In this document: one piece after another, positions 8,877 to 38,048 of the stretch
How the letters are laid out: every line of letters begins with the position of its first letter
Position numbering within the stretch: position 1 is the first letter of the stretch
Source: Ferrithrix thermotolerans DSM 19514
GTDB taxonomy: Bacteria; Actinomycetota; Acidimicrobiia; Acidimicrobiales; CAIXPF01
Length of the DNA: 64,000 nt
NCBI GenBank assembly: GCA_945906305.1
Contig: CAMDQT010000004.1
Coordinates: forward strand, 66,117-130,116
Direction of reading: 5' to 3'
Made by a program: the position numbers and the translations under genes
The notes under the pieces: generated by a model
Seen by the model: only the letters and a program-made list of their open reading frames with translations
What the model was told of the DNA's origin: nothing
The model's database searches: none

Positions 8877-9671
8877 ATGTCGGGCGAACTGCAAGGAAGG
8901 GTCGCCATCGTTACCGGTGGTGGTCGGGGAATCGGCAAGGCCATCGCGCTGGGCTTGGCGGCCGATGGCGCTGACGTGGTGGTGAACTATCGACGCGATG
9001 GCCTCGCCGCAGCCGAGACGGTGGCGGCGATCGAAGGCCTCGGGCGTCAGGCCATTGCGGTCGCGGCCTCGATCGACGATTTCGATGCGTGCGCCGCTCT
9101 GGTCGAGGCCGCCGTTGGGCACTTCGGTTTTGTGGACATCCTGGTCAACAACGGTGGCATCGCCAGCCAGGGTCGCTCGGTGGCAGACACTGACCCGGCT
9201 GAGATGGCTCGGGTGGTGCACACCCACGCCTTTGGGGCGTGGAACATGTCCAAGCTGGTCCTACCGACGATGCGTACTCGCCCCCGAGGCGACATCGTGA
9301 TGATCTCTTCGGTGGCCACCATGTCCAATGGTGCCAACGGAGCGCCCTACAACATGGGTAAGGCAGCCCTTGAGTCCTTGGCCTTTACCCTCGCCAAAGA
9401 GGAGCGACCGCACGGCATCCACGTCAATATTGCGGCCCCCGGTCTGGTGGAGACGGACATGGGGCGACGATTGGCCCGCGCCGTCGCCGGGGTCGAGGAT
9501 CTGCGCACCCTCGATGCCACGATGCCTTTCGGGCGGGTCTGTCAACCGGAGGACGTGGCGGACGTGGTGCGGTTCTTCTGCTCCGCCAAGGCTGGCTATC
9601 TCACCGGTGAGAAGCTGAATGTGTGGGGTGGTGGCCAGGACTGGCGCAACGCCGGCACGGCGGAACACTGA
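8877..9671 (+). CDS. SDR family oxidoreductase (FabG-like)
   Basis: TGGGRGIG cofactor motif, NNGG, and the YxxxK region (YNMGKAAL). Confidence 0.85.
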   Translation: MSGELQGRVAIVTGGGRGIGKAIALGLAADGADVVVNYRRDGLAAAETVAAIEGLGRQAIAVAASIDDFDACAALVEAAVGHFGFVDILVNNGGIASQGRSVADTDPAEMARVVHTHAFGAWNMSKLVLPTMRTRPRGDIVMISSVATMSNGANGAPYNMGKAALESLAFTLAKEERPHGIHVNIAAPGLVETDMGRRLARAVAGVEDLRTLDATMPFGRVCQPEDVADVVRFFCSAKAGYLTGEKLNVWGGGQDWRNAGTAEH

Positions 9672-9782
9672 GCGAGGCGACTCGCCCCTGCGTCGAGGGC
9701 GTCGCTCCCGCTACCATTTCTCCTACGGCGATGTTGGAAATCCCGGGCTGTTGGCCCATGTCGACCGAGAGGGAGCAGGTGC

Positions 9783-10463
9783 GTGATGTCGAGGACCGAG
9801 GCGATGGACAGCGGTGTGGCCGATGGCGGCGAGGCCGACGCGGTTATCGAGTTGGTCGAGTTCGTACTCACCGTCACCCCTCAGGCGATCGAGAAGGTGC
9901 TGGAACTACGTTCCGGTGAGGACAAGGCCGAGCTGATGGGTCTCCGGGTGGAGATCACGGGCCATGTCGGCGTGGACTTCCAATACGACCTGTCCTTCGA
10001 ACCTCTCGAGGATGTTGCCGAGGGTGACTCGGTAACGGTGCAGTCGGGCCTGTCGGTCATCGTTCCCGCCAAGAGCCTGATCAATCTGCAGGGCTCGACG
10101 CTCGATCTTCCCACCAACGCCGCCCAGGGTGGGTTAGTGATCCGTAACCCGAACCGGCCCAATCCCCTGGCGGGGCTCCACCTCGAGCTGTCCGGCACCA
10201 TGGCGGAGAAGGTTCAGACACTGCTGGAGCAGTCCGTCAACCCCTCGCTTGCCGCTCACGGGGGTTTCGCCACTCTGATTGGGGTGGACGAGGAGGCCGG
10301 CAACGTCTATCTCACCATGGGTGGCGGGTGCCAGGGCTGCTCGATGAGCCGAGCCACGCTGACCAATGGCATCAAGGCCGCCATCATCGAGGCCATGCCC
10401 GAGATCGTCGACGTCATCGATGCCACCGACCATTCTGCGGGTAGCAGCCCCTTCTACAGCTGA
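9783..10463 (+). CDS. NfuA-like Fe-S biogenesis protein (degenerate HesB/IscA-like N-domain plus Nfu domain)
   Basis: C-terminal Nfu domain with GGGCQGCSMS. N-terminal A-type-carrier-like fold. Confidence 0.7.
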   Translation: MMSRTEAMDSGVADGGEADAVIELVEFVLTVTPQAIEKVLELRSGEDKAELMGLRVEITGHVGVDFQYDLSFEPLEDVAEGDSVTVQSGLSVIVPAKSLINLQGSTLDLPTNAAQGGLVIRNPNRPNPLAGLHLELSGTMAEKVQTLLEQSVNPSLAAHGGFATLIGVDEEAGNVYLTMGGGCQGCSMSRATLTNGIKAAIIEAMPEIVDVIDATDHSAGSSPFYS

Positions 10464-28592: not shown

Positions 28593-29597
28593 GTGGCCCG
28601 CTATCATCGTCTCATGGCGGCTCCGCTCATCGATTCCTTTGGCCGGGTCCACCGTGATTTACGGATCTCGGTGACGGATCGTTGCAACTTCCGCTGCACG
28701 TATTGCATGCCGGCGGAAGGTATGGCCTGGCTGCCGCGCAGCGAGGTGCTCACCTTCGAGGAGATCTACCGGGTGGCCCGGATCATGGTCGAGCGATTCG
28801 GGCTGGAATCCATCCGGCTGACCGGCGGCGAGCCCACGGTTCGAGCCCATCTACCTCGGCTGGTCGAGATGCTCGCCACACTCGGCGTCGATTTGGCCTT
28901 GACCACCAACGGCGCCACGCTGGCCATACTGGCCCCAGAGTTGGCTGCTGCAGGTTTGCGCCGGATCAACGTCTCGTGTGATTCGTTGCGGCCCGATCGT
29001 TTCGCGGAGATCACCAAGCGCGACAGCCTGCACAAGGTGCTCGAGGGCATCGACGCCGCGCTCGCGGCAGGCTTGAATCCGGTGAAGCTCAACGTGGTCG
29101 CCATGCGCGGGGTGAACGAGGACGAGTTGCTCGATTTCGCCGCTTTCGGCCGCGACAAGGGGGTCACGGTCCGCTACATCGAGTTCATGCCGCTTGACGC
29201 CCAGCAGGCCTGGACCAATGACCAGGTGCTGACCTACGACGAGATTCGTCGAACCATCAGCGATGCCTATCCAATCGAGCCCCTCGAGCGTGGTTCGGCG
29301 CCGGCGGAACGGTTCCGCTACCTCGACGGCAAGGGGGAGATCGGGATCATCGCTTCGGTGACTCAAAGCTTCTGCGAAAGCTGTGATCGGGTGCGTCTCA
29401 CGTCGGAAGGTTCCTTCCGGACCTGCCTGTTCGCCACCGAGGAGCAGGCCCTACGGCCGTTGTTGCGCGCCGGTGGTACCGACGACGAGATCGCTCAAGT
29501 GATAGCTCGCGCCGTTTCGGAGAAGTGGGCCGGCCATCGCATCAATGAGGTCCACTTCATCCGGCCCTCCAAGTCGATGAGCCAGATCGGCGGCTGA
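28593..29597 (+). CDS. moaA: GTP 3',8-cyclase (radical SAM)
   Basis: DRCNFRCTYCMP radical-SAM motif and conserved C-terminal Gly-Gly. The alternative ATG at 28614 is equally plausible. Confidence 0.9.
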   Translation: MARYHRLMAAPLIDSFGRVHRDLRISVTDRCNFRCTYCMPAEGMAWLPRSEVLTFEEIYRVARIMVERFGLESIRLTGGEPTVRAHLPRLVEMLATLGVDLALTTNGATLAILAPELAAAGLRRINVSCDSLRPDRFAEITKRDSLHKVLEGIDAALAAGLNPVKLNVVAMRGVNEDELLDFAAFGRDKGVTVRYIEFMPLDAQQAWTNDQVLTYDEIRRTISDAYPIEPLERGSAPAERFRYLDGKGEIGIIASVTQSFCESCDRVRLTSEGSFRTCLFATEEQALRPLLRAGGTDDEIAQVIARAVSEKWAGHRINEVHFIRPSKSMSQIGG

Positions 29598-29706
29598 TGT
29601 GAAGTTGCACGCGCTGAAAGGCCGCGAATCGCGTCGGGTGTCAGTCGGAGTTGCACCCGGATGCCAGGGAAGTTGCACCCACTGAAAAGGTTGCAGCCAC
29701 TGAAAG
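29598..29706 (-). repeat. Composite repeat copy A (inverted relative to B and C), degenerate
   Basis: On the plus strand: GAAGTTGCAC at 29601 and 29669, GGAGTTGCAC at 29647, AAGGTTGCAG at 29687. Three of the four cores are followed by NNN-CTGAAA (the 29647 core is not). Begins immediately after the moaA stop. Confidence 0.85.
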
Positions 29707-30185
29707 CGCTTGAGCGGCAGTCAGGTCATCGGCGCTCGGCGGGCTGAGCAGGCATGGTGCTGGCCCGGTCGACCTGAACGCCGGCCGCGCCGGAGCCTGT
29801 CGCCGCGGCCGTCAACTCCCCGCTGCGGCCGCGTGCTGGAGGCTTGTTGCCGGGCCGTTGGCGGCCCCGGCCGCTCTTGCGATGGTGGCTCGATCAACTT
29901 GCGATGGTGTCCCCATGAACGTGGAAACTGCGTCTCCGCGCGCCGGTCCGCGAGTGTCGACGGGGTGCAGGGCTCGCCACGATCCGCGTGGTGGGGGACA
30001 TGGTCGCTTCCGACCCGCCTGACCCGATCCCCGCCGTGAACTGCTCGCCCGCCCCGGACTCGACACGTCCACCCCGCTATGAGTGTCCGTGTCTCGCGGC
30101 GACTGGCACGCTCGCCCGGACTGTGTTGAGGACACCCCGACGGTGGCGGTGGACAAGATGGTCAGGTCAGGGCCTCGAGGCGCGG

Positions 30186-30258
30186 TTTCAGTGGGTGCAA
30201 CTTCCGGGCGACTGAAAGCTCGTGCAACTTCTCGGCCTTCAGTCGGTGCAACTTCACA
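30186..30258 (+). repeat. Composite repeat copy B
   Basis: GTGCAACTTC at 30195, 30222 and 30246 (spacing 27 and 24), interleaved with TTTCAG / CTGAAAG / CCTTCAG segments. Ends ...CTTCACA. Confidence 0.9.
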
Positions 30259-30320
30259 GCTGAATAGCTGGTCAGCCGCCCCGGAAGGCCCGCCGCGCTC
30301 CGTGACCGACGGTCGGGTCC

Positions 30321-30872
30321 TCAGCCGTGGACCTTCACACCGACGTAGTGCACGCCGAGCACGGTGCCCTTGGCGTCGACCATCGGCTCGTAAATCGTGT
30401 CGTACTTCTCGCCGAGGATGTCGACCACGCCGCTGAAGGCCTTGGCCTGCCGGATCTGAGCGATGACCGGTCCTGTGGGGTCGAGTTCCGTTCCGACCGC
30501 CCGCTTTCCGTCCTTCATCACGTTGGTGCTGACCCGCACGAAGGCCGAGCCCTGGGCGACGAAGAACGTGGCGGTGCAGCCGAACTCCCCGGCGACGGCG
30601 TCGACGAGGGTGAAGTCGTCGTTGACCTTCGTCGACCCGAACGACAGCACCGACCCGGACACACTCGGGGCCCCGAGCTTGGCGGCGTCGGCCTTGAGCT
30701 TCGCCATCGCTGCGCTCAACTGCTTCGCAGCAACAACAACCGTCGTCGTCGCCGACGCCGCGGCGGGCGTGGCGTCATCGCTGCCCCCACCACAGCCGGC
30801 GGACCCCACCGCCAGCACGGCGGCCACCGCGACGGCGCGGGCGATCGTGCGAGTACGAGCGTGTCCGGTCAT
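30321..30872 (-). CDS. Stand-alone Cache-domain (sCache_3_2-like) secreted/lipo-protein
   Basis: Signal peptide ending VGSAGC. VRVSTNVMKDGKRAVGTELD...GEKYDTIYEPMVDAKGTVLGVHYVGV matches the single-Cache sensor fold. SD GGGAGAG upstream. No output domain. Confidence 0.7.
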   Translation of the reverse strand: MTGHARTRTIARAVAVAAVLAVGSAGCGGGSDDATPAAASATTTVVVAAKQLSAAMAKLKADAAKLGAPSVSGSVLSFGSTKVNDDFTLVDAVAGEFGCTATFFVAQGSAFVRVSTNVMKDGKRAVGTELDPTGPVIAQIRQAKAFSGVVDILGEKYDTIYEPMVDAKGTVLGVHYVGVKVHG

Positions 30873-30938
30873 GAACTTCTCTCCCTGTCAGTCGCTCCCG
30901 GCCGTGACCGGCATGGGGGTCCTGGACGTTAGCCGCAA

Positions 30939-30966
30939 CGGCGACGGCGACGGCGACGGCGACGGC
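30939..30966. repeat. Hexanucleotide microsatellite (CGGCGA) x ~4.7
   Basis: Perfect tandem cggcga x4 plus cggc, starting 67 nt upstream of the Cache gene start. Confidence 0.9.
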
Positions 30967-31106
30967 TTGCACCCGGGTGGTGTCCGTTGGTTCCTCAGGA
31001 GGTGCCCGCTTCGGCCTTGAAGTGGGCCATGGCAAGGGTGATGAACACAGCGGCCATTGGCCGCAGAAGGCGTTACCCGGGCGGGCGCATCGGGTGGAGG
31101 TGACCC

Positions 31107-31304
31107 ATGAGGATCCTCGATCGCATCAGGTCACTGTTCGGGAACAAGCCCGGGTACGGCCGACCGGGTACCGGCCGGCTGATGTCTCTGGGCGGTGGCG
31201 AGGAGGCCGGGCGGCACGACGAGATCCGCGATGCGGCACGGACGCGTCAGTTCGGCCAGCCGTCGGACACGCTTGAGGACAGCGTCCGTCCGCCGTTGGG
31301 CTGA
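31107..31304 (+). CDS. Small hypothetical protein (65 aa)
   Basis: ATG preceded by GGAGGTG at a 4-nt spacing. My hand count gives about 82% GC at third codon positions against about 56% at second positions, which is coding-like. Amphipathic N-terminus MRILDRIRSLFG. Confidence 0.45.
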   Translation: MRILDRIRSLFGNKPGYGRPGTGRLMSLGGGEEAGRHDEIRDAARTRQFGQPSDTLEDSVRPPLG

Positions 31305-31365
31305 CCCCGCTGTGCGCCACACGACGGCGGCTCGGCCCGTCGCCGAAGCGACGACTACTCCGGCC

Positions 31366-31576
31366 GAGGCTGTTCGAGCAGAGCCGGGACGTCGAGCGGG
31401 GCCGCGCTCACGCCGAGACGTCGAAGCCGCTGCCAGCTCGTCCGGGTACCGTAGGCGATGGTCGAGACGCTCTGGATGACGACGAGGTTCATCAGCTGGC
31501 GGAAGACGATCTGCTGGAAGGACAGGACCCACACGGCCCGGCGGCGCTCCCCGTCAAGCCGCGTCGGAGCCCCGAT
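31366..31576 (-). pseudogene. C-terminal remnant of a GT2-family glycosyltransferase
   Basis: The minus frame reads ...AVWVLSFQQIVFRQLMNLVVIQSVSTIAYGTRTSWQRLRRLG...*. This resembles the conserved Q(F/I)VYRQLMY..VIQS....W..L.R.G tail of actinobacterial GT2 enzymes. An in-frame stop lies upstream at 31577-31579 and no N-terminal catalytic part is present. Confidence 0.45.
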
Positions 31577-31700
31577 TCAACCGACGTTTGTCCGCGGTTA
31601 CTCTGCCTGGCCGAGATCGCCACCGAGGACCCACGCCGCCGACATTGACCCAGACCACGGCAGCGACGGCACCACAACGCCTGGGCGGTCAGTGGGTCCG

Positions 31701-31773
31701 TTTCAGCGCGTGCAACTTCGGGGCCACTGAAGCTGAGTGCAACTTTTCGGCCTTCAGCGGGTGCAACTTCACA
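31701..31773 (+). repeat. Composite repeat copy C
   Basis: GTGCAACTTC at 31710 and 31761, GTGCAACTTT at 31737 (spacing 27 and 24). Collinear with copy B at roughly 85% identity. Ends 27 nt before the carboxyltransferase ATG. Confidence 0.9.
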
Positions 31774-31800
31774 GCTGATCCGAGCCGCTAGGTTCGCCGA

Positions 31801-33345
31801 ATGGCTCAGCCCGATTTGTCGACCGACCCCGCTCATTCGCAGCTTCCTCTCCGTCTGGAACAGCTGCTCGCCGCTAGGGCCGCCACCTTGGACGAGAACC
31901 GTCCCGCGGCGCTTGAGCGACAGCACGGCCGGGGTCGTTGGACGGCGCGAGAGCGGATCGGCGCGCTGTTGGACCCGGGAACGTTTCTGGAGTACGGCCA
32001 GCTCGCCGAGCCCAAGACCCGGGCGTTGGGGGAGGGTCCCGCCGACGGGTTGGTGATGGGGGTGGGCCTGGTAGACGGGCGAGCGGTGTGCGTGTTCACC
32101 TATGACTACACGGTGTTCGGGGGCAGCCAGAGCCCTCGTAACCATCGCAAGATGGACCGCATGCTGGCCCTGGCCGAACGCAACCGCTGGCCGGTGCTTT
32201 GCTGGTCGGAGGGGGGTGGTGCTCGAGCCACCGAACTCGATTACGACGGCGGTATGGTCACTACGTTCGTGCAGCTGGCCCGCATGTCTGGTCTCGTGCC
32301 CATCATCTGCCTTTTGTCGGGCCCCTCATTCGCGGGACAGGCCAACATCGCCGGTTGCGCCGATGTCGTGATCGCCACCCGGGCCTCGACCTTGGGTCTG
32401 TCCGGCCCGCCGTTGGTTCTCTCCGCCACTGGCGCGGCCGTCACCCCGCAAGACATTGGACCGATGGACCTGCATGAGCGCATCGGCACGGTGGACCTGC
32501 TCGTGGATGACGAGGAGCAGTTGCTGGCGACCGCCCGGGCGTATCTCGGTTACTTCGGGGGTCGGGTCCCGGCGGTGGATGCTCCCGGCGACGCCGATGC
32601 CCTACGGCGGATGGTGCCGGAAAACCCGCGCCGTGCCTATGACGTGCGACGCGTCGTGGCCGCCATTGCGGACGAAGGTGCGGTGTTGGAACTACGGCCG
32701 TTGTGGGGCCGGTGCCTGTCGACCTCGCTCGTGCGTATCGACGGCAGACCGCTTGGGGTCATCGCCAACAATCCGATGTTCGGCGCGGGTGCGATCGACC
32801 GTGACGGCGCCGACAAGTTCTCCCGGTTCGTCGAGTTGTGTAACGCCTATGACCTGCCGTTGCTGTTCCTGTGCGATACCCCGGGGTTCATGATTGGACG
32901 AGGGGCCGAGGAGACCGCTCTCGTCCGCCACAGCGCTCGCACCTTGATGGCGCTGGCCAACGCCGATGTGCCGCTGCTCACCATCGTGCTGCGCAAGGCC
33001 TACGGGCTGGGGTATTACGTGATGGGCTGCGACTGCTTCCAGCCGGAGCTCATTGTGGGTTGGCCGACGGCGGAATTCGGTGGAATGGGTCTCGAGGGCG
33101 CCGTCAATATCGTCTATCGAGATGAATTGGCCGCGGCCGTGGACGAGTCGGCTCGCAAGGAGTTGCGGGCGCGGCTGACCGAGGAAATGAAGGAGCGCAA
33201 CACGGGTCTCTCCTATGCCCGTGGTTTCGCGCTCGACGACATCATCGACCCTGCTGACACCAGGGAGGTGCTGATTAGGGCCCTAAACACCCTGCCTGCT
33301 CCGCCACCACGAACGAGCCGGAAACACCCCATCGATCCGTGGTGA
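31801..33345 (+). CDS. Acyl-CoA carboxylase carboxyltransferase (beta) subunit
   Basis: Two crotonase-like CT domains. ERQHGRGRWTARERI N-terminus typical of PccB/AccD5-like proteins. Confidence 0.85.
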   Translation: MAQPDLSTDPAHSQLPLRLEQLLAARAATLDENRPAALERQHGRGRWTARERIGALLDPGTFLEYGQLAEPKTRALGEGPADGLVMGVGLVDGRAVCVFTYDYTVFGGSQSPRNHRKMDRMLALAERNRWPVLCWSEGGGARATELDYDGGMVTTFVQLARMSGLVPIICLLSGPSFAGQANIAGCADVVIATRASTLGLSGPPLVLSATGAAVTPQDIGPMDLHERIGTVDLLVDDEEQLLATARAYLGYFGGRVPAVDAPGDADALRRMVPENPRRAYDVRRVVAAIADEGAVLELRPLWGRCLSTSLVRIDGRPLGVIANNPMFGAGAIDRDGADKFSRFVELCNAYDLPLLFLCDTPGFMIGRGAEETALVRHSARTLMALANADVPLLTIVLRKAYGLGYYVMGCDCFQPELIVGWPTAEFGGMGLEGAVNIVYRDELAAAVDESARKELRARLTEEMKERNTGLSYARGFALDDIIDPADTREVLIRALNTLPAPPPRTSRKHPIDPW

Positions 33346-33431: not shown

Positions 33432-33929
33432 ATGGCCGAACTGGGTTTCACCCACCTCGATCCGCTGGGGCGTGCCCGCATGGTGGATGTAACCCCGAAG
33501 GACCCGACCCACCGCCGAGCCGTGGCCAAGGGCCGGGTCTTCATGACCCCGGAGACGGCCTCACTCGTCGCTCGTGGGGCCGTGAGCAAAGGCGACGTGT
33601 TGGCCGTGGCGCGGGTGGCGGGAATCCAGGCCGCCAAGCGGGCATCGGATCTGATCCCGTTGTGTCATCCGCTGCTCATTGGTGGCGTGTTTGTGAACTT
33701 CCGCATCGAAGACGATCACGTCGAGATCGAGGCTCAAGTTGACACGGTGGATCGTACCGGGGTTGAGATGGAGGCCCTCACCGCGGTGGCGGTGGCGGCA
33801 CTGACGATCTACGACATGTGCAAGTCTGCCGATCGCACGATGCGTATCAGTGATATCGCGCTATGGGAGAAGTCTGGTGGTCGCTCCGGCACTTTCCGTC
33901 GTGAAATATCGCCCGATGATGCGCGATGA
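33432..33929 (+). CDS. moaC: Cyclic pyranopterin monophosphate synthase
   Basis: FTHLDPLGRARMVDVTPK, KGDVLAVARVAGIQAAK, LIPLCHPL and ALTIYDMCK motifs. Confidence 0.9.
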   Translation: MAELGFTHLDPLGRARMVDVTPKDPTHRRAVAKGRVFMTPETASLVARGAVSKGDVLAVARVAGIQAAKRASDLIPLCHPLLIGGVFVNFRIEDDHVEIEAQVDTVDRTGVEMEALTAVAVAALTIYDMCKSADRTMRISDIALWEKSGGRSGTFRREISPDDAR

Positions 33930-33980
33930 GGGCCATTTCCGACGTAATTGCCAACTTTTGCTGGCATTGACGTAACCTCT

Positions 33981-34045
33981 ACCACTAAGCAATGAAGGCA
34001 TCTTCCGTTAGTGGTTGCGACCATGGCATGTCGCAGTACCACTAA
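33981..34045 (+). promoter_or_regulatory. Candidate leader/attenuator RNA with mutually exclusive hairpins
   Basis: ACCACTAA (33981) / TTAGTGGT (34008) / ACCACTAA (34038). The middle arm can pair with either flank, and each alternative is extended by an inner 5-bp stem. Lies in an AT-rich 235-nt gap. Confidence 0.35.
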
Positions 34046-34096
34046 AACAACCACAACCCCGGGGCCGACCAACGCAATTCAGCACCGCCATTCGAC

Positions 34097-34116
34097 AAAA
34101 AAGGCAGCGCCTTTTC
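34097..34116 (+). terminator. Small terminator-like hairpin in the same leader
   Basis: AAAAGGC-agc-GCCTTTT with flanking A and T runs (bidirectional appearance), 50 nt upstream of the GTG at 34166. Confidence 0.4.
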
Positions 34117-34165
34117 ATTCGATAGGTAGTGATGGGACGGGTACCCGCCAAGGTAGGGATTACCG

Positions 34166-34693
34166 GTGAATTTCAGCACGCTTCTCGTTCTTGTGTTCCT
34201 AGTGGGAATGTGGGTGGCCCTTTTGGCTGGTCCTCTCCTGGCGCACAGAGGCTCGGGAGGTAGCCGGGGGAGAGACTCGATCAAGTCCTTCCAGCGGCAA
34301 CAATCGGTACTGGATCGCCAGCAAGGCATTGGCTCCCCAACGCTGCGTTCCTCGGCCTCTCTGGGCCGCGTGTCGGCCGCGCCTCGTCTGATGTCGAACC
34401 GCTCGGGCCAGGAGCGCTCTCGTATGGCTGCTCAGCGGCGCAAGATGATCGTGACGGTGCTGAGCGGGTCGACCCTCACCTTCTTGCTGTTGTCCTTCAT
34501 GAAGGGTGGCCCGTTCCTCATGCTGTGCATTGCGAGCGCAGCGCTGATGGTGAGCTATGTGGGCCTGATGATGTACCTGCTCGGGGCCAACGCCGAGCGC
34601 GAGATGAAGGTGGCCTTCCTGCCTCACCGCAACTCCGCGGCCGAGCCGAGCAGGCCCTTGAACCTGCGCGAAGCGTCTGCCGGACGGCGCTGA
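34166..34693 (+). CDS. Hypothetical membrane protein (3 predicted TM helices)
   Basis: N-terminal TM, a basic/Ser-rich linker (SIKSFQRQQSVL), then two C-terminal TM helices. GTG start. Confidence 0.6.
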   Translation: MNFSTLLVLVFLVGMWVALLAGPLLAHRGSGGSRGRDSIKSFQRQQSVLDRQQGIGSPTLRSSASLGRVSAAPRLMSNRSGQERSRMAAQRRKMIVTVLSGSTLTFLLLSFMKGGPFLMLCIASAALMVSYVGLMMYLLGANAEREMKVAFLPHRNSAAEPSRPLNLREASAGRR

Positions 34694-37080: not shown

Positions 37081-37485
37081 TCAGTGCCGGGCTGGTAGCG
37101 CGAGCTCGAACCAAACGGTTCGGCCAGCATCGCTGTGCTGCACTCCCCAGGCGTTGGCCAGCGCATCGACGAGGAGTAGGCCGCGTCCGCTTGTTTCGCT
37201 CGGATCGGGTCGACGGAGTTTGGGACCTGCTCCGCCACCGGCGTCGGTGACCTCGACTCGTAGGGAGTCGGAACCGATGCGTAAGGTCAAAACACCTGGG
37301 CCGGGGCTGTGCAGGATGGCGTTGGTCACCAACTCGCTCACCATGACCTCAACGTCGGTGCCGCAGCGGTGCCCAGCCCAGGGGACGAGTTGGGCGAGAA
37401 CGTTTTTGCGGGCCTCGCCGATGGCCAGTTCTGACGCCGGAAAGGACCACGCGTAGAGCTCAGTGCAGGGTCCGACGGTGGGCAC
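37081..37485 (-). CDS. HATPase_c (RsbW-like) anti-sigma factor/serine kinase
   Basis: VSELVTNAILHS and TSGRGLLLVDALA motifs. Confidence 0.75.
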   Translation of the reverse strand: MPTVGPCTELYAWSFPASELAIGEARKNVLAQLVPWAGHRCGTDVEVMVSELVTNAILHSPGPGVLTLRIGSDSLRVEVTDAGGGAGPKLRRPDPSETSGRGLLLVDALANAWGVQHSDAGRTVWFELALPARH

Positions 37486-37523
37486 GCCGACACGATAGTG
37501 CCGACCCCCGGGCGCTTGAGCTG

Positions 37524-38048
37524 CTAGCGCTCGGCAACGGCGGTGGAGCCATCCTTGGGTTGCGCAACGGGCTCCTCGGAAGCCCAGGGGAACAGGATCC
37601 AGCGGTCGCTGTCCCGCCAGACGTAGTGCGGTCGGACCACCGAGTGCGGCTTGTAGTAAAGAACCGCGCTGCGAACCTCAAGCACCTTTGGGGTACAGAA
37701 CCGCAGCACCATGTCGAGGGTGTGGCCGGTGTCCGCGACATCGTCGACCACCAGGACCTGGCGGTCCTCAAGTCCCATCAGATCGAGAAAGGGGGGCAGG
37801 ATGACCGGCATCTCAAGCCGCTCGTTCACGCCGGTGTAGTACTCGACGTTCATGGTGAAGATGTTCTTGACCGAAAGCAGGTAGCCCAACGCTCCTGCAG
37901 GGACCAAACCGCCGCGGGCGATGGCCAGGATGATGTCGGGCTGAAAGCCCGATTGGGCCACCATGGCTGCGAGTTCTTTGACGGCATCGCCGAAGCGAGA
38001 CCAGGTCAGGACCTCGTAGATGTCCACGGGGTCATGCGAACTGGCCAT
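37524..38048 (-). CDS. Phosphoribosyltransferase (purine PRT-like)
   Basis: PRPP loop VLVVDDVADTGHT and IARGGLVPAG. Confidence 0.8.
   Translation of the reverse strand: MASSHDPVDIYEVLTWSRFGDAVKELAAMVAQSGFQPDIILAIARGGLVPAGALGYLLSVKNIFTMNVEYYTGVNERLEMPVILPPFLDLMGLEDRQVLVVDDVADTGHTLDMVLRFCTPKVLEVRSAVLYYKPHSVVRPHYVWRDSDRWILFPWASEEPVAQPKDGSTAVAER

Follow-up and report, generated by a model that had tools for sequence, protein, structure and literature searches.

A 2,176-bp insertion with multi-site ends at the moaA stop codon of an Acidimicrobiia genome: a probable non-autonomous transposable element

Three repeat loci within one insertion

The stretch of DNA analysed here (the window) comprises 64 kb of contig CAMDQT010000004.1, from a member of the Acidimicrobiia (order Acidimicrobiales). 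A MoeA gene precedes moaA in the window, and between moaA and a downstream carboxyltransferase gene lie three loci, A, B and C, each built from one iterated sequence core. An earlier reading of the letters (the original prediction) had taken these for three independent loci of a dispersed and unrecognised repeat family. Comparison with a relative places all of them in a single insertion at 29598-31773, which we regard as a probable non-autonomous transposable element of 2,176 bp with multi-site ends, inserted at the moaA stop codon. The features of the locus are as follows, in window positions.

28593-29597, + strand: moaA, the target gene (Pfam Radical_SAM and Mob_synth_C), intact despite the insertion
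29593-29597, + strand: left target-site duplication GCTGA, containing the moaA stop TGA; one copy in the relative's empty site
29598-29707, + strand: end A, the moaA-proximal terminus; the boundary against the relative falls precisely at 29598
29601-29619, 29647-29665, 29669-29687 and 29687-29705: repeat units of A, with a possibly decayed unit near 29622-29646
29708-30184: interior between A and B, 478 bp, GC-rich (about 70%), with no convincing coding signal (frame plot; stop-rich translations; open reading frames (ORFs) without a Pfam match)
30185-30258, + strand: end B, a putative internal second right end, ending ACA-3'; 85% identity to C
30186-30204, 30213-30231 and 30237-30255: repeat units of B
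30259-30263, + strand: internal GCTGA directly after B; the repeat match between B and C extends through it
30306-30953, - strand: passenger segment, a Cache-domain lipoprotein gene (coding sequence 30321-30872) plus ~80 bp of DNA upstream of it
30954-31699: remaining cargo, a hexanucleotide repeat plus ORFs of 65 and 59 amino acids
31700-31773, + strand: end C, the distal terminus, ending ACA-3'
31701-31719, 31728-31746 and 31752-31770: repeat units of C
31774-31778, + strand: right target-site duplication GCTGA, followed by the native 22-bp spacer (31779-31800)
31801-33345, + strand: carboxyltransferase gene (Pfam Carboxyl_trans, 2e-104), outside the element
33432-33929: moaC, from homology to relatives and a MoaC Pfam call on identical contigs of the same strain

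Together A and B bound a unit of 661 bp (29598-30258) that resembles a miniature inverted-repeat transposable element (MITE).

The MoaA of the host shows 81-82% amino-acid identity to its best Acidimicrobiia relatives in GTDB, and the closest homologue of the carboxyltransferase (89% identity) is found on contig P0122, where the gene order is MoeA-TrkA-MoaA-carboxyltransferase-MoaC. In this relative the site is empty. The moaA stop (GGCGGCTGA) is followed by a 22-bp spacer and the ATG of the carboxyltransferase, and GCTGA is present once at the junction (...CAGATCGGCGGCTGA CCCGAACCGCTAGGTTCGCCGG ATGGCCCAGCCCGA). The window instead reads ...CAGATCGGCGGCTGA / TGTGAAGTTGCAC... at its left junction and ...GTGCAACTTCACA / GCTGA TCCGAGCCGCTAGGTTCGCCGA ATGGCTCAGCCCGA at its right junction. 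With 29598-31778 taken out, window and relative align at 83% identity, and the alignment crosses the junction without a gap. Given this ungapped junction and the single GCTGA in the relative, 29598-31773 is one insertion of 2,176 bp flanked by a 5-bp target duplication. The comparison thus shows A and C as the two termini of the insertion and B as a presumed extra terminus within it, so that the three loci can no longer be counted as independent. The apparent target is the 5 bp GCTGA that contain the stop codon of moaA.

Judging by gene order in the relative, the carboxyltransferase gene is an older neighbour of moaA, in place before the insertion, and not cargo of the element. MoaC comes within 30-60 bp after moaA in three GTDB relatives and at most of 80 Acidimicrobiia loci, and none of the 80 relatives' loci has an insertion after the moaA stop. 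The carboxyltransferase gene (31801-33345) is itself an earlier insertion that separates moaA from moaC. The three GTDB relatives whose MoaA is 81-82% identical lack it at this position, those whose carboxyltransferase is 85-87% identical carry it elsewhere, beside a PFK or an FMO-like gene, and the order moaA-carboxyltransferase-moaC occurs only in the 89% relative among those compared. A separate kind of rearrangement is seen at six loci of Candidatus Poriferisodalis and its allies, where two or three tandem duplicates of the last 20-33 bp of moaA, including ...GGCGGCTGA or TAG, lie between moaA and moaC.

Architecture of the ends

The iterated cores are as the original prediction described them. 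All seven exact copies of GTGCAACTTC in the window lie within A, B and C, and with up to one mismatch the window contains 15 copies against 2.98 +/- 1.83 expected, a count reached in 0 of 100 shuffles. The seven exact cores and two of the one-mismatch cores fall within 29601-29678, 30195-30255 and 31710-31770. Moreover, nhmmer profiles made from B and C and from the repeat unit matched the window at these three loci only; a search for further copies, suggested earlier as a check, found none outside the one insertion in the 74 kb of the strain's DNA or, among the matches listed, in public collections.

B (30185-30263) and C (31700-31778) are collinear without gaps over 79 nucleotides (nt) at 85% identity. 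The collinearity noted earlier (about 85% over 73 nt) is therefore borne out and somewhat longer, the match continuing 5 bp past the last core. A stands in inverted orientation to both, in the manner of a terminal inverted repeat. The original prediction reported a 19-mer shared by A and B; perfect or near-perfect reverse-complement matches of 19-21 nt join A to C as well as to B, and the terminal 21 nt of C are 95% complementary to the terminus of A. On the + strand A starts 5'-TGTGAAGTTGCAC at 29598, while B (30258) and C (31773) end GTGCAACTTCACA-3'. Read from the outside in, all three begin TGT-GAAGTTGCAC, with the outermost unit 3 bp from the TGT/ACA terminus, and the inverted similarity ends precisely at these trinucleotides (TGT at 29598-29600; ACA at 30256-30258 and 31771-31773). 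GCTGA stands in direct orientation immediately outside each of them, at 29593-29597 for A, 30259-30263 for B and 31774-31778 for C.

The repeat unit is bipartite and about 19 bp long, with the form GAAGTTGCAC-N3-CTGAAA(G). Each end holds three to five such units, four to five of them spread out in A and three packed together in B and in C. In A the units start at offsets of 4, 50, 72 and 90 from the tip, and the DNA at offset ~25-49 resembles a degenerate version of the second unit in B and C. In B and C the offsets are 4, 28 and 55, and the second box of the middle unit is inverted (CTTTCAG). The cores inside any one end all share the same orientation. B and C differ at 12 positions, which are distributed unevenly: 9 of 21 spacer positions have changed compared with 3 of 53 positions in cores, boxes and terminus (Fisher p = 3e-4). 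Thus the spacers have drifted while the motifs were conserved, indicating that the motif is under constraint. This non-uniform divergence also means that B and C are not the product of a recent duplication. Such a pattern would be expected of protein-binding sites in two related elements.

Origin of the element

The repeat clusters are the termini of a transposon with an uncatalogued family of end sequences, and not an RNA motif or an operator array. The element itself is of an ordinary kind. Its architecture matches the class of Tn7, Mu, Tn402 and IS21, in which a DDE transposase binds several sites per end. It is the combination of TGT/ACA termini, a 5-bp duplication and asymmetric, inverted arrays of ~20-bp sites that leads us to propose a trans-acting transposase of this class. 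Under this proposal a DDE transposase (retroviral-integrase fold), encoded elsewhere in the genome, would bind the GAAGTTGCAC-N3-CTGAAA units, pair two ends in a synapse and cleave at the terminal CA, exposing CA-3'OH. The ends would then be joined to the target strands at a 5-bp stagger, giving rise to the GCTGA duplication. The cargo, that is the Cache gene and the small ORFs, would be chromosomal DNA caught between the ends.

End B calls for a further step. The GCTGA that follows C also follows B, which makes B most likely a former terminus at that target. The simplest explanation of B and its GCTGA is a second right end, the same 5 bp having been hit twice: two related elements would have inserted one after the other, giving moaA-GCTGA-[A..B]-GCTGA-[..C]-GCTGA, and the second would afterwards have lost its moaA-proximal end.

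Tn7-like elements (TnsB/TnsC/TniQ) offer the closest comparison. They are characterised by ends with several TnsB sites in asymmetric arrangement, by termini of TGT/ACA and by a target duplication of 5 bp (PMC9881144). The group includes the Tn5053/Tn402 lineage (PMC9881144, PMC8649781), and TGT/ACA termini are common in it without being universal (PMC9881144). These termini and the 5-bp duplication are common to our element and to Tn7-like elements, the Tn5053/Tn402 and Tn6022 lineages included, as is the arrangement of several ~20-bp sites per end, inverted and asymmetric. Here the putative sites number four to five against three; in Tn7 there are three on the left and four on the right. A further shared trait is that insertion occurs at the 3' end of a conserved housekeeping gene or just beyond it and leaves the gene intact. 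Surveys of Tn7-like elements describe extra ends arising through adjacent or internal insertions (PMC8649781), to which B may be likened, and an Actinobacteria-dominated clade of TnsB is still uncharacterised (PMC8649781). However, tnsB, tnsC and tniQ (rve DDE, AAA+ and TniQ/TnsD domains) were found neither in the element, nor among the ~48 window ORFs scanned, nor in the 10 kb to the left, so that the element could only be a non-autonomous Tn7-like derivative. The details of its ends also differ, in that the first site begins 3 bp in from the tip (about 8-12 bp in Tn7-like elements), the second half-site is inverted in the central site of the right end, and none of the collections searched contains a match to the end sequences. 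As for targeting of a dedicated attachment site, the record is one insertion at a moaA stop and none in 80 relatives, with the flank of B suggesting reuse of the site. We consider it rather unlikely, though worth entertaining, that the locus reveals an undescribed lineage of the Tn7/Mu class in Acidimicrobiia, in which a TniQ/TnsD-like selector directs elements to the moaA stop as a dedicated attachment site. Such a lineage would have inserted there at least twice, leaving the 661-bp mini-element beside the remnant of an older, cargo-carrying one.

Other systems share parts of this architecture. The ends of phage Mu (attL L1-L3, attR R1-R3) have TG..CA termini, a 5-bp duplication and three bipartite MuA sites of ~22 bp each, spread out at one end and close together at the other. 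In contrast to Mu, phage genes are absent here and the element is only 2.2 kb long. IS21 elements (IstA/IstB), which are common in Actinomycetota, have terminal TG..CA and repeated transposase-binding direct repeats (L1/L2, R1/R2) that may be likened to the units described here. Target duplications of IS21 measure 4-8 bp. The ends of IS21 span ~50-55 bp and carry terminal CA and two, sometimes three, direct repeats (PMC10122671), whereas those described here span 74-110 bp with three to five repeats, and the element lacks istA and istB; it does not belong to IS21. Like MITEs, the element is small (661 bp from A to B; 2,176 bp from A to C), devoid of a transposase gene and bounded by terminal inverted repeats and a target duplication. 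MITEs, however, are defined by many dispersed copies and this element is known from one insertion.

Several points weigh against a transposon. Pfam analysis found no transposase among the ~48 ORFs scanned across the window, all of which are housekeeping genes, and the 10 kb beyond the left window edge likewise contain housekeeping genes and no transposase. For GTDB genomes, JGI metagenomes, IMG/VR and plasmids, multi-core scans included, the matches listed contain neither a second copy nor a full-length relative. Contigs of the same strain are 100% identical over the region, so that there is no polymorphic empty site among them and mobility is deduced from one insertion event. The binding of protein to the units, the chemistry and the identity of the transposase are likewise matters of deduction. 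Lastly, the tandem-insertion history of B demands a clean and unexplained loss of one end.

The searches covered, for the strain's own DNA, the window and adjoining pieces. The species appears to be absent from the GTDB species genomes (best MoaA identity there 82%) and from the public pattern scans generally. Within the 74 kb of the strain's DNA no further copy was present. The exact pattern of the terminal unit gave only chance matches in GTDB genomes, JGI metagenomes and IMG/VR, and patterns of two or three cores gave, among the matches listed, only unrelated tandem arrays. Blastn of A and C against plasmids returned nothing useful, and Rfam held no match to the repeats. A literature search for the repeat string retrieved only primers, and the text part of a Tn7 survey supplement contains no matching motif and no moaA entry. 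The original statement that no catalogued family is recognisable therefore stands for Rfam, plasmids and the genome, metagenome and viral pattern scans.

Two kinds of look-alike emerged from these searches. With nhmmer, the moaA loci of 80 relatives gave only a coincidence within coding sequence: TGCAACTTCCGCTGC-like DNA, which mimics the core, encodes the conserved radical-SAM motif CNxRC in MoaA (28682-28691, and equivalent positions in most relatives). It yields weak profile matches in every relative and is a source of false positives for motif scans. Moreover, intergenic arrays sharing the core, (A)GTTGCAC, occur in other Actinomycetota among the matches listed. An Intrasporangium metagenome-assembled genome (L022, 5780-5915) has CAGAAGTTGCACACTCGATTG three times with an inverted copy around a 45-bp centre, Amycolatopsis pithecellobii has head-to-head arrays on two contigs (L285, 1250-1450; L325, 6090-6230), and further arrays are found in Acidithrix ferrooxidans (L311 and L343) and in an Acidimicrobiales metagenome-assembled genome (L330, 3510-3585), beside a tRNA. 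These resemble miniature elements with the same kind of architecture, but as they were retrieved by searching for that very core the likeness may be coincidence, and we treat it as ascertainment and not as homology.

Of the other explanations, site-specific recombination fares best, although we judge it improbable. An integrative element mobilised by a tyrosine or other site-specific recombinase would have GCTGA as the crossover core of attL and attR and the units as core- and arm-type sites. This would account for the short direct repeats flanking the insert, for the inverted arrays of repeated sites at both junctions and, as an expected outcome of site-specific integration, for reuse of the same 5 bp at B and C. 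However, an overlap of 5 bp is atypical; tyrosine recombinases have overlaps of 6-8 bp and serine recombinases of 2 bp. The flanks of GCTGA in the empty site are unlike the element-side sites, agreeing by eye at ~4 of 11-13 positions, and no integrase or recombinase gene was found in the element or among the window ORFs scanned. TGT/ACA termini abutting the duplication are, moreover, a signature of DDE transposition (PMC9881144). The element likewise departs from integron attC and tyrosine-recombinase att sites, with their paired inverted cores, 6-8-bp overlap and recombinase gene.

It is slightly less probable still that the clusters are operator or iteron arrays, bound by a host transcription factor or a replication or partition protein that regulates neighbouring genes, such as the carboxyltransferase gene, which lies 28 bp beyond C. 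Phasing of the sites, their conservation among variable spacers and the position of C, at -100 to -28 relative to the carboxyltransferase start, favour this view. The original impression of a phased array resembling protein-binding sites survives, but iteron or operator activity as its primary function is not supported. A and B lie between convergent gene ends and not at promoters, there is no array in the relative that shares the moaA-carboxyltransferase junction, and regulation leaves the TGT/ACA boundaries and the 5-bp duplication unexplained. No sigma-70-like promoter was found, and nothing at the repeats matched a promoter or terminator. End C may have an incidental, secondary effect on the downstream carboxyltransferase gene.

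There is little to recommend a functionless and purely local segmental duplication beyond the single known locus (scans, among the matches listed), given the uneven divergence of B and C with its conserved motifs (p = 3e-4), the inversion of A with respect to B and C, and the precise boundaries and target duplication seen against the relative. Least credible is a structured non-coding RNA or REP-like hairpin repeat, in which the hairpins first suggested, with CTTTCAG/CTGAAAG stems, would present the core in loops, since, although short complementary segments of this kind are present, minimum free energies on both strands of A, B and C are those of shuffled sequences (z = 0.10, -0.69, 0.14, -1.78, -0.37 and -0.57; range -1.78 to +0.14, none significant), B is predicted to fold differently from C, Rfam gives no match and the B/C substitutions lie in spacers without a compensatory pattern.

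Cargo, neighbouring genes and implications

Pfam detected no transposase domain in the ORFs of the element. The protein of the passenger segment has a Cache_3-Cache_2 domain (Pfam, 3e-30), and the segment (30306-30953) shows 84-87% nucleotide identity to relatives. There the Cache gene follows a PfkB kinase gene, either immediately or with an ORF of 174 amino acids between them, and precedes AHSA1 or a response regulator and a histidine kinase. As the gene belongs to another conserved neighbourhood in relatives, the copy in the element is relocated chromosomal DNA. Upstream of it lies a (GACGGC)n hexanucleotide repeat (30933-30966), at which three short Logan contigs of the strain break, ~95 bp upstream of the gene. 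The 65-amino-acid ORF (31107-31304, + strand) and the 59-amino-acid ORF (31355-31534, - strand) had no match in Pfam or PDB and no homologue, including in a search of 5.8 billion proteins; the latter shows a strong codon-position GC bias. The idea that the 59-amino-acid ORF might be a C-terminal remnant of a glycosyltransferase was dropped, having no support in these same searches.

Elsewhere in the window, the DNA downstream of moaC (33800-34250) has a G+C content of 53-57% against ~65% for the genome, and its flanking genes are common to relatives. The genes for HATPase_c_2 and phosphoribosyltransferase proteins, adjacent in the window (37485-37524), are separated on contig P0122 by a sigma-70 factor gene and two small ORFs (~2.4 kb). 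Two assemblies (L401 and L402) differ in the genes called beside the same AI-2E transporter protein (locus 9100-10000; window ~1219-2143), one having a 285-amino-acid PDDEXK_1/DUF2800 protein and the other an ORF of 136 amino acids on the opposite strand. This could be a strain difference or a difference in gene calling.

In summary, an unexplained repeat family gains a concrete annotation, that of a mobile-element insertion in an uncultured lineage of Acidimicrobiia, which splits the molybdenum-cofactor gene cluster between moaA and the carboxyltransferase-moaC pair. Much of this is ordinary mobile-DNA biology, from which three things stand apart. The end motif TGT-GAAGTTGCAC-N3-CTGAAA can serve as a probe of complete assemblies for the autonomous element with its transposase. 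The Cache-domain gene exemplifies the relocation of a chromosomal gene by an element without a transposase. Moreover, one 5-bp target may have been used repeatedly and, if confirmed, this would point to site-specific targeting.

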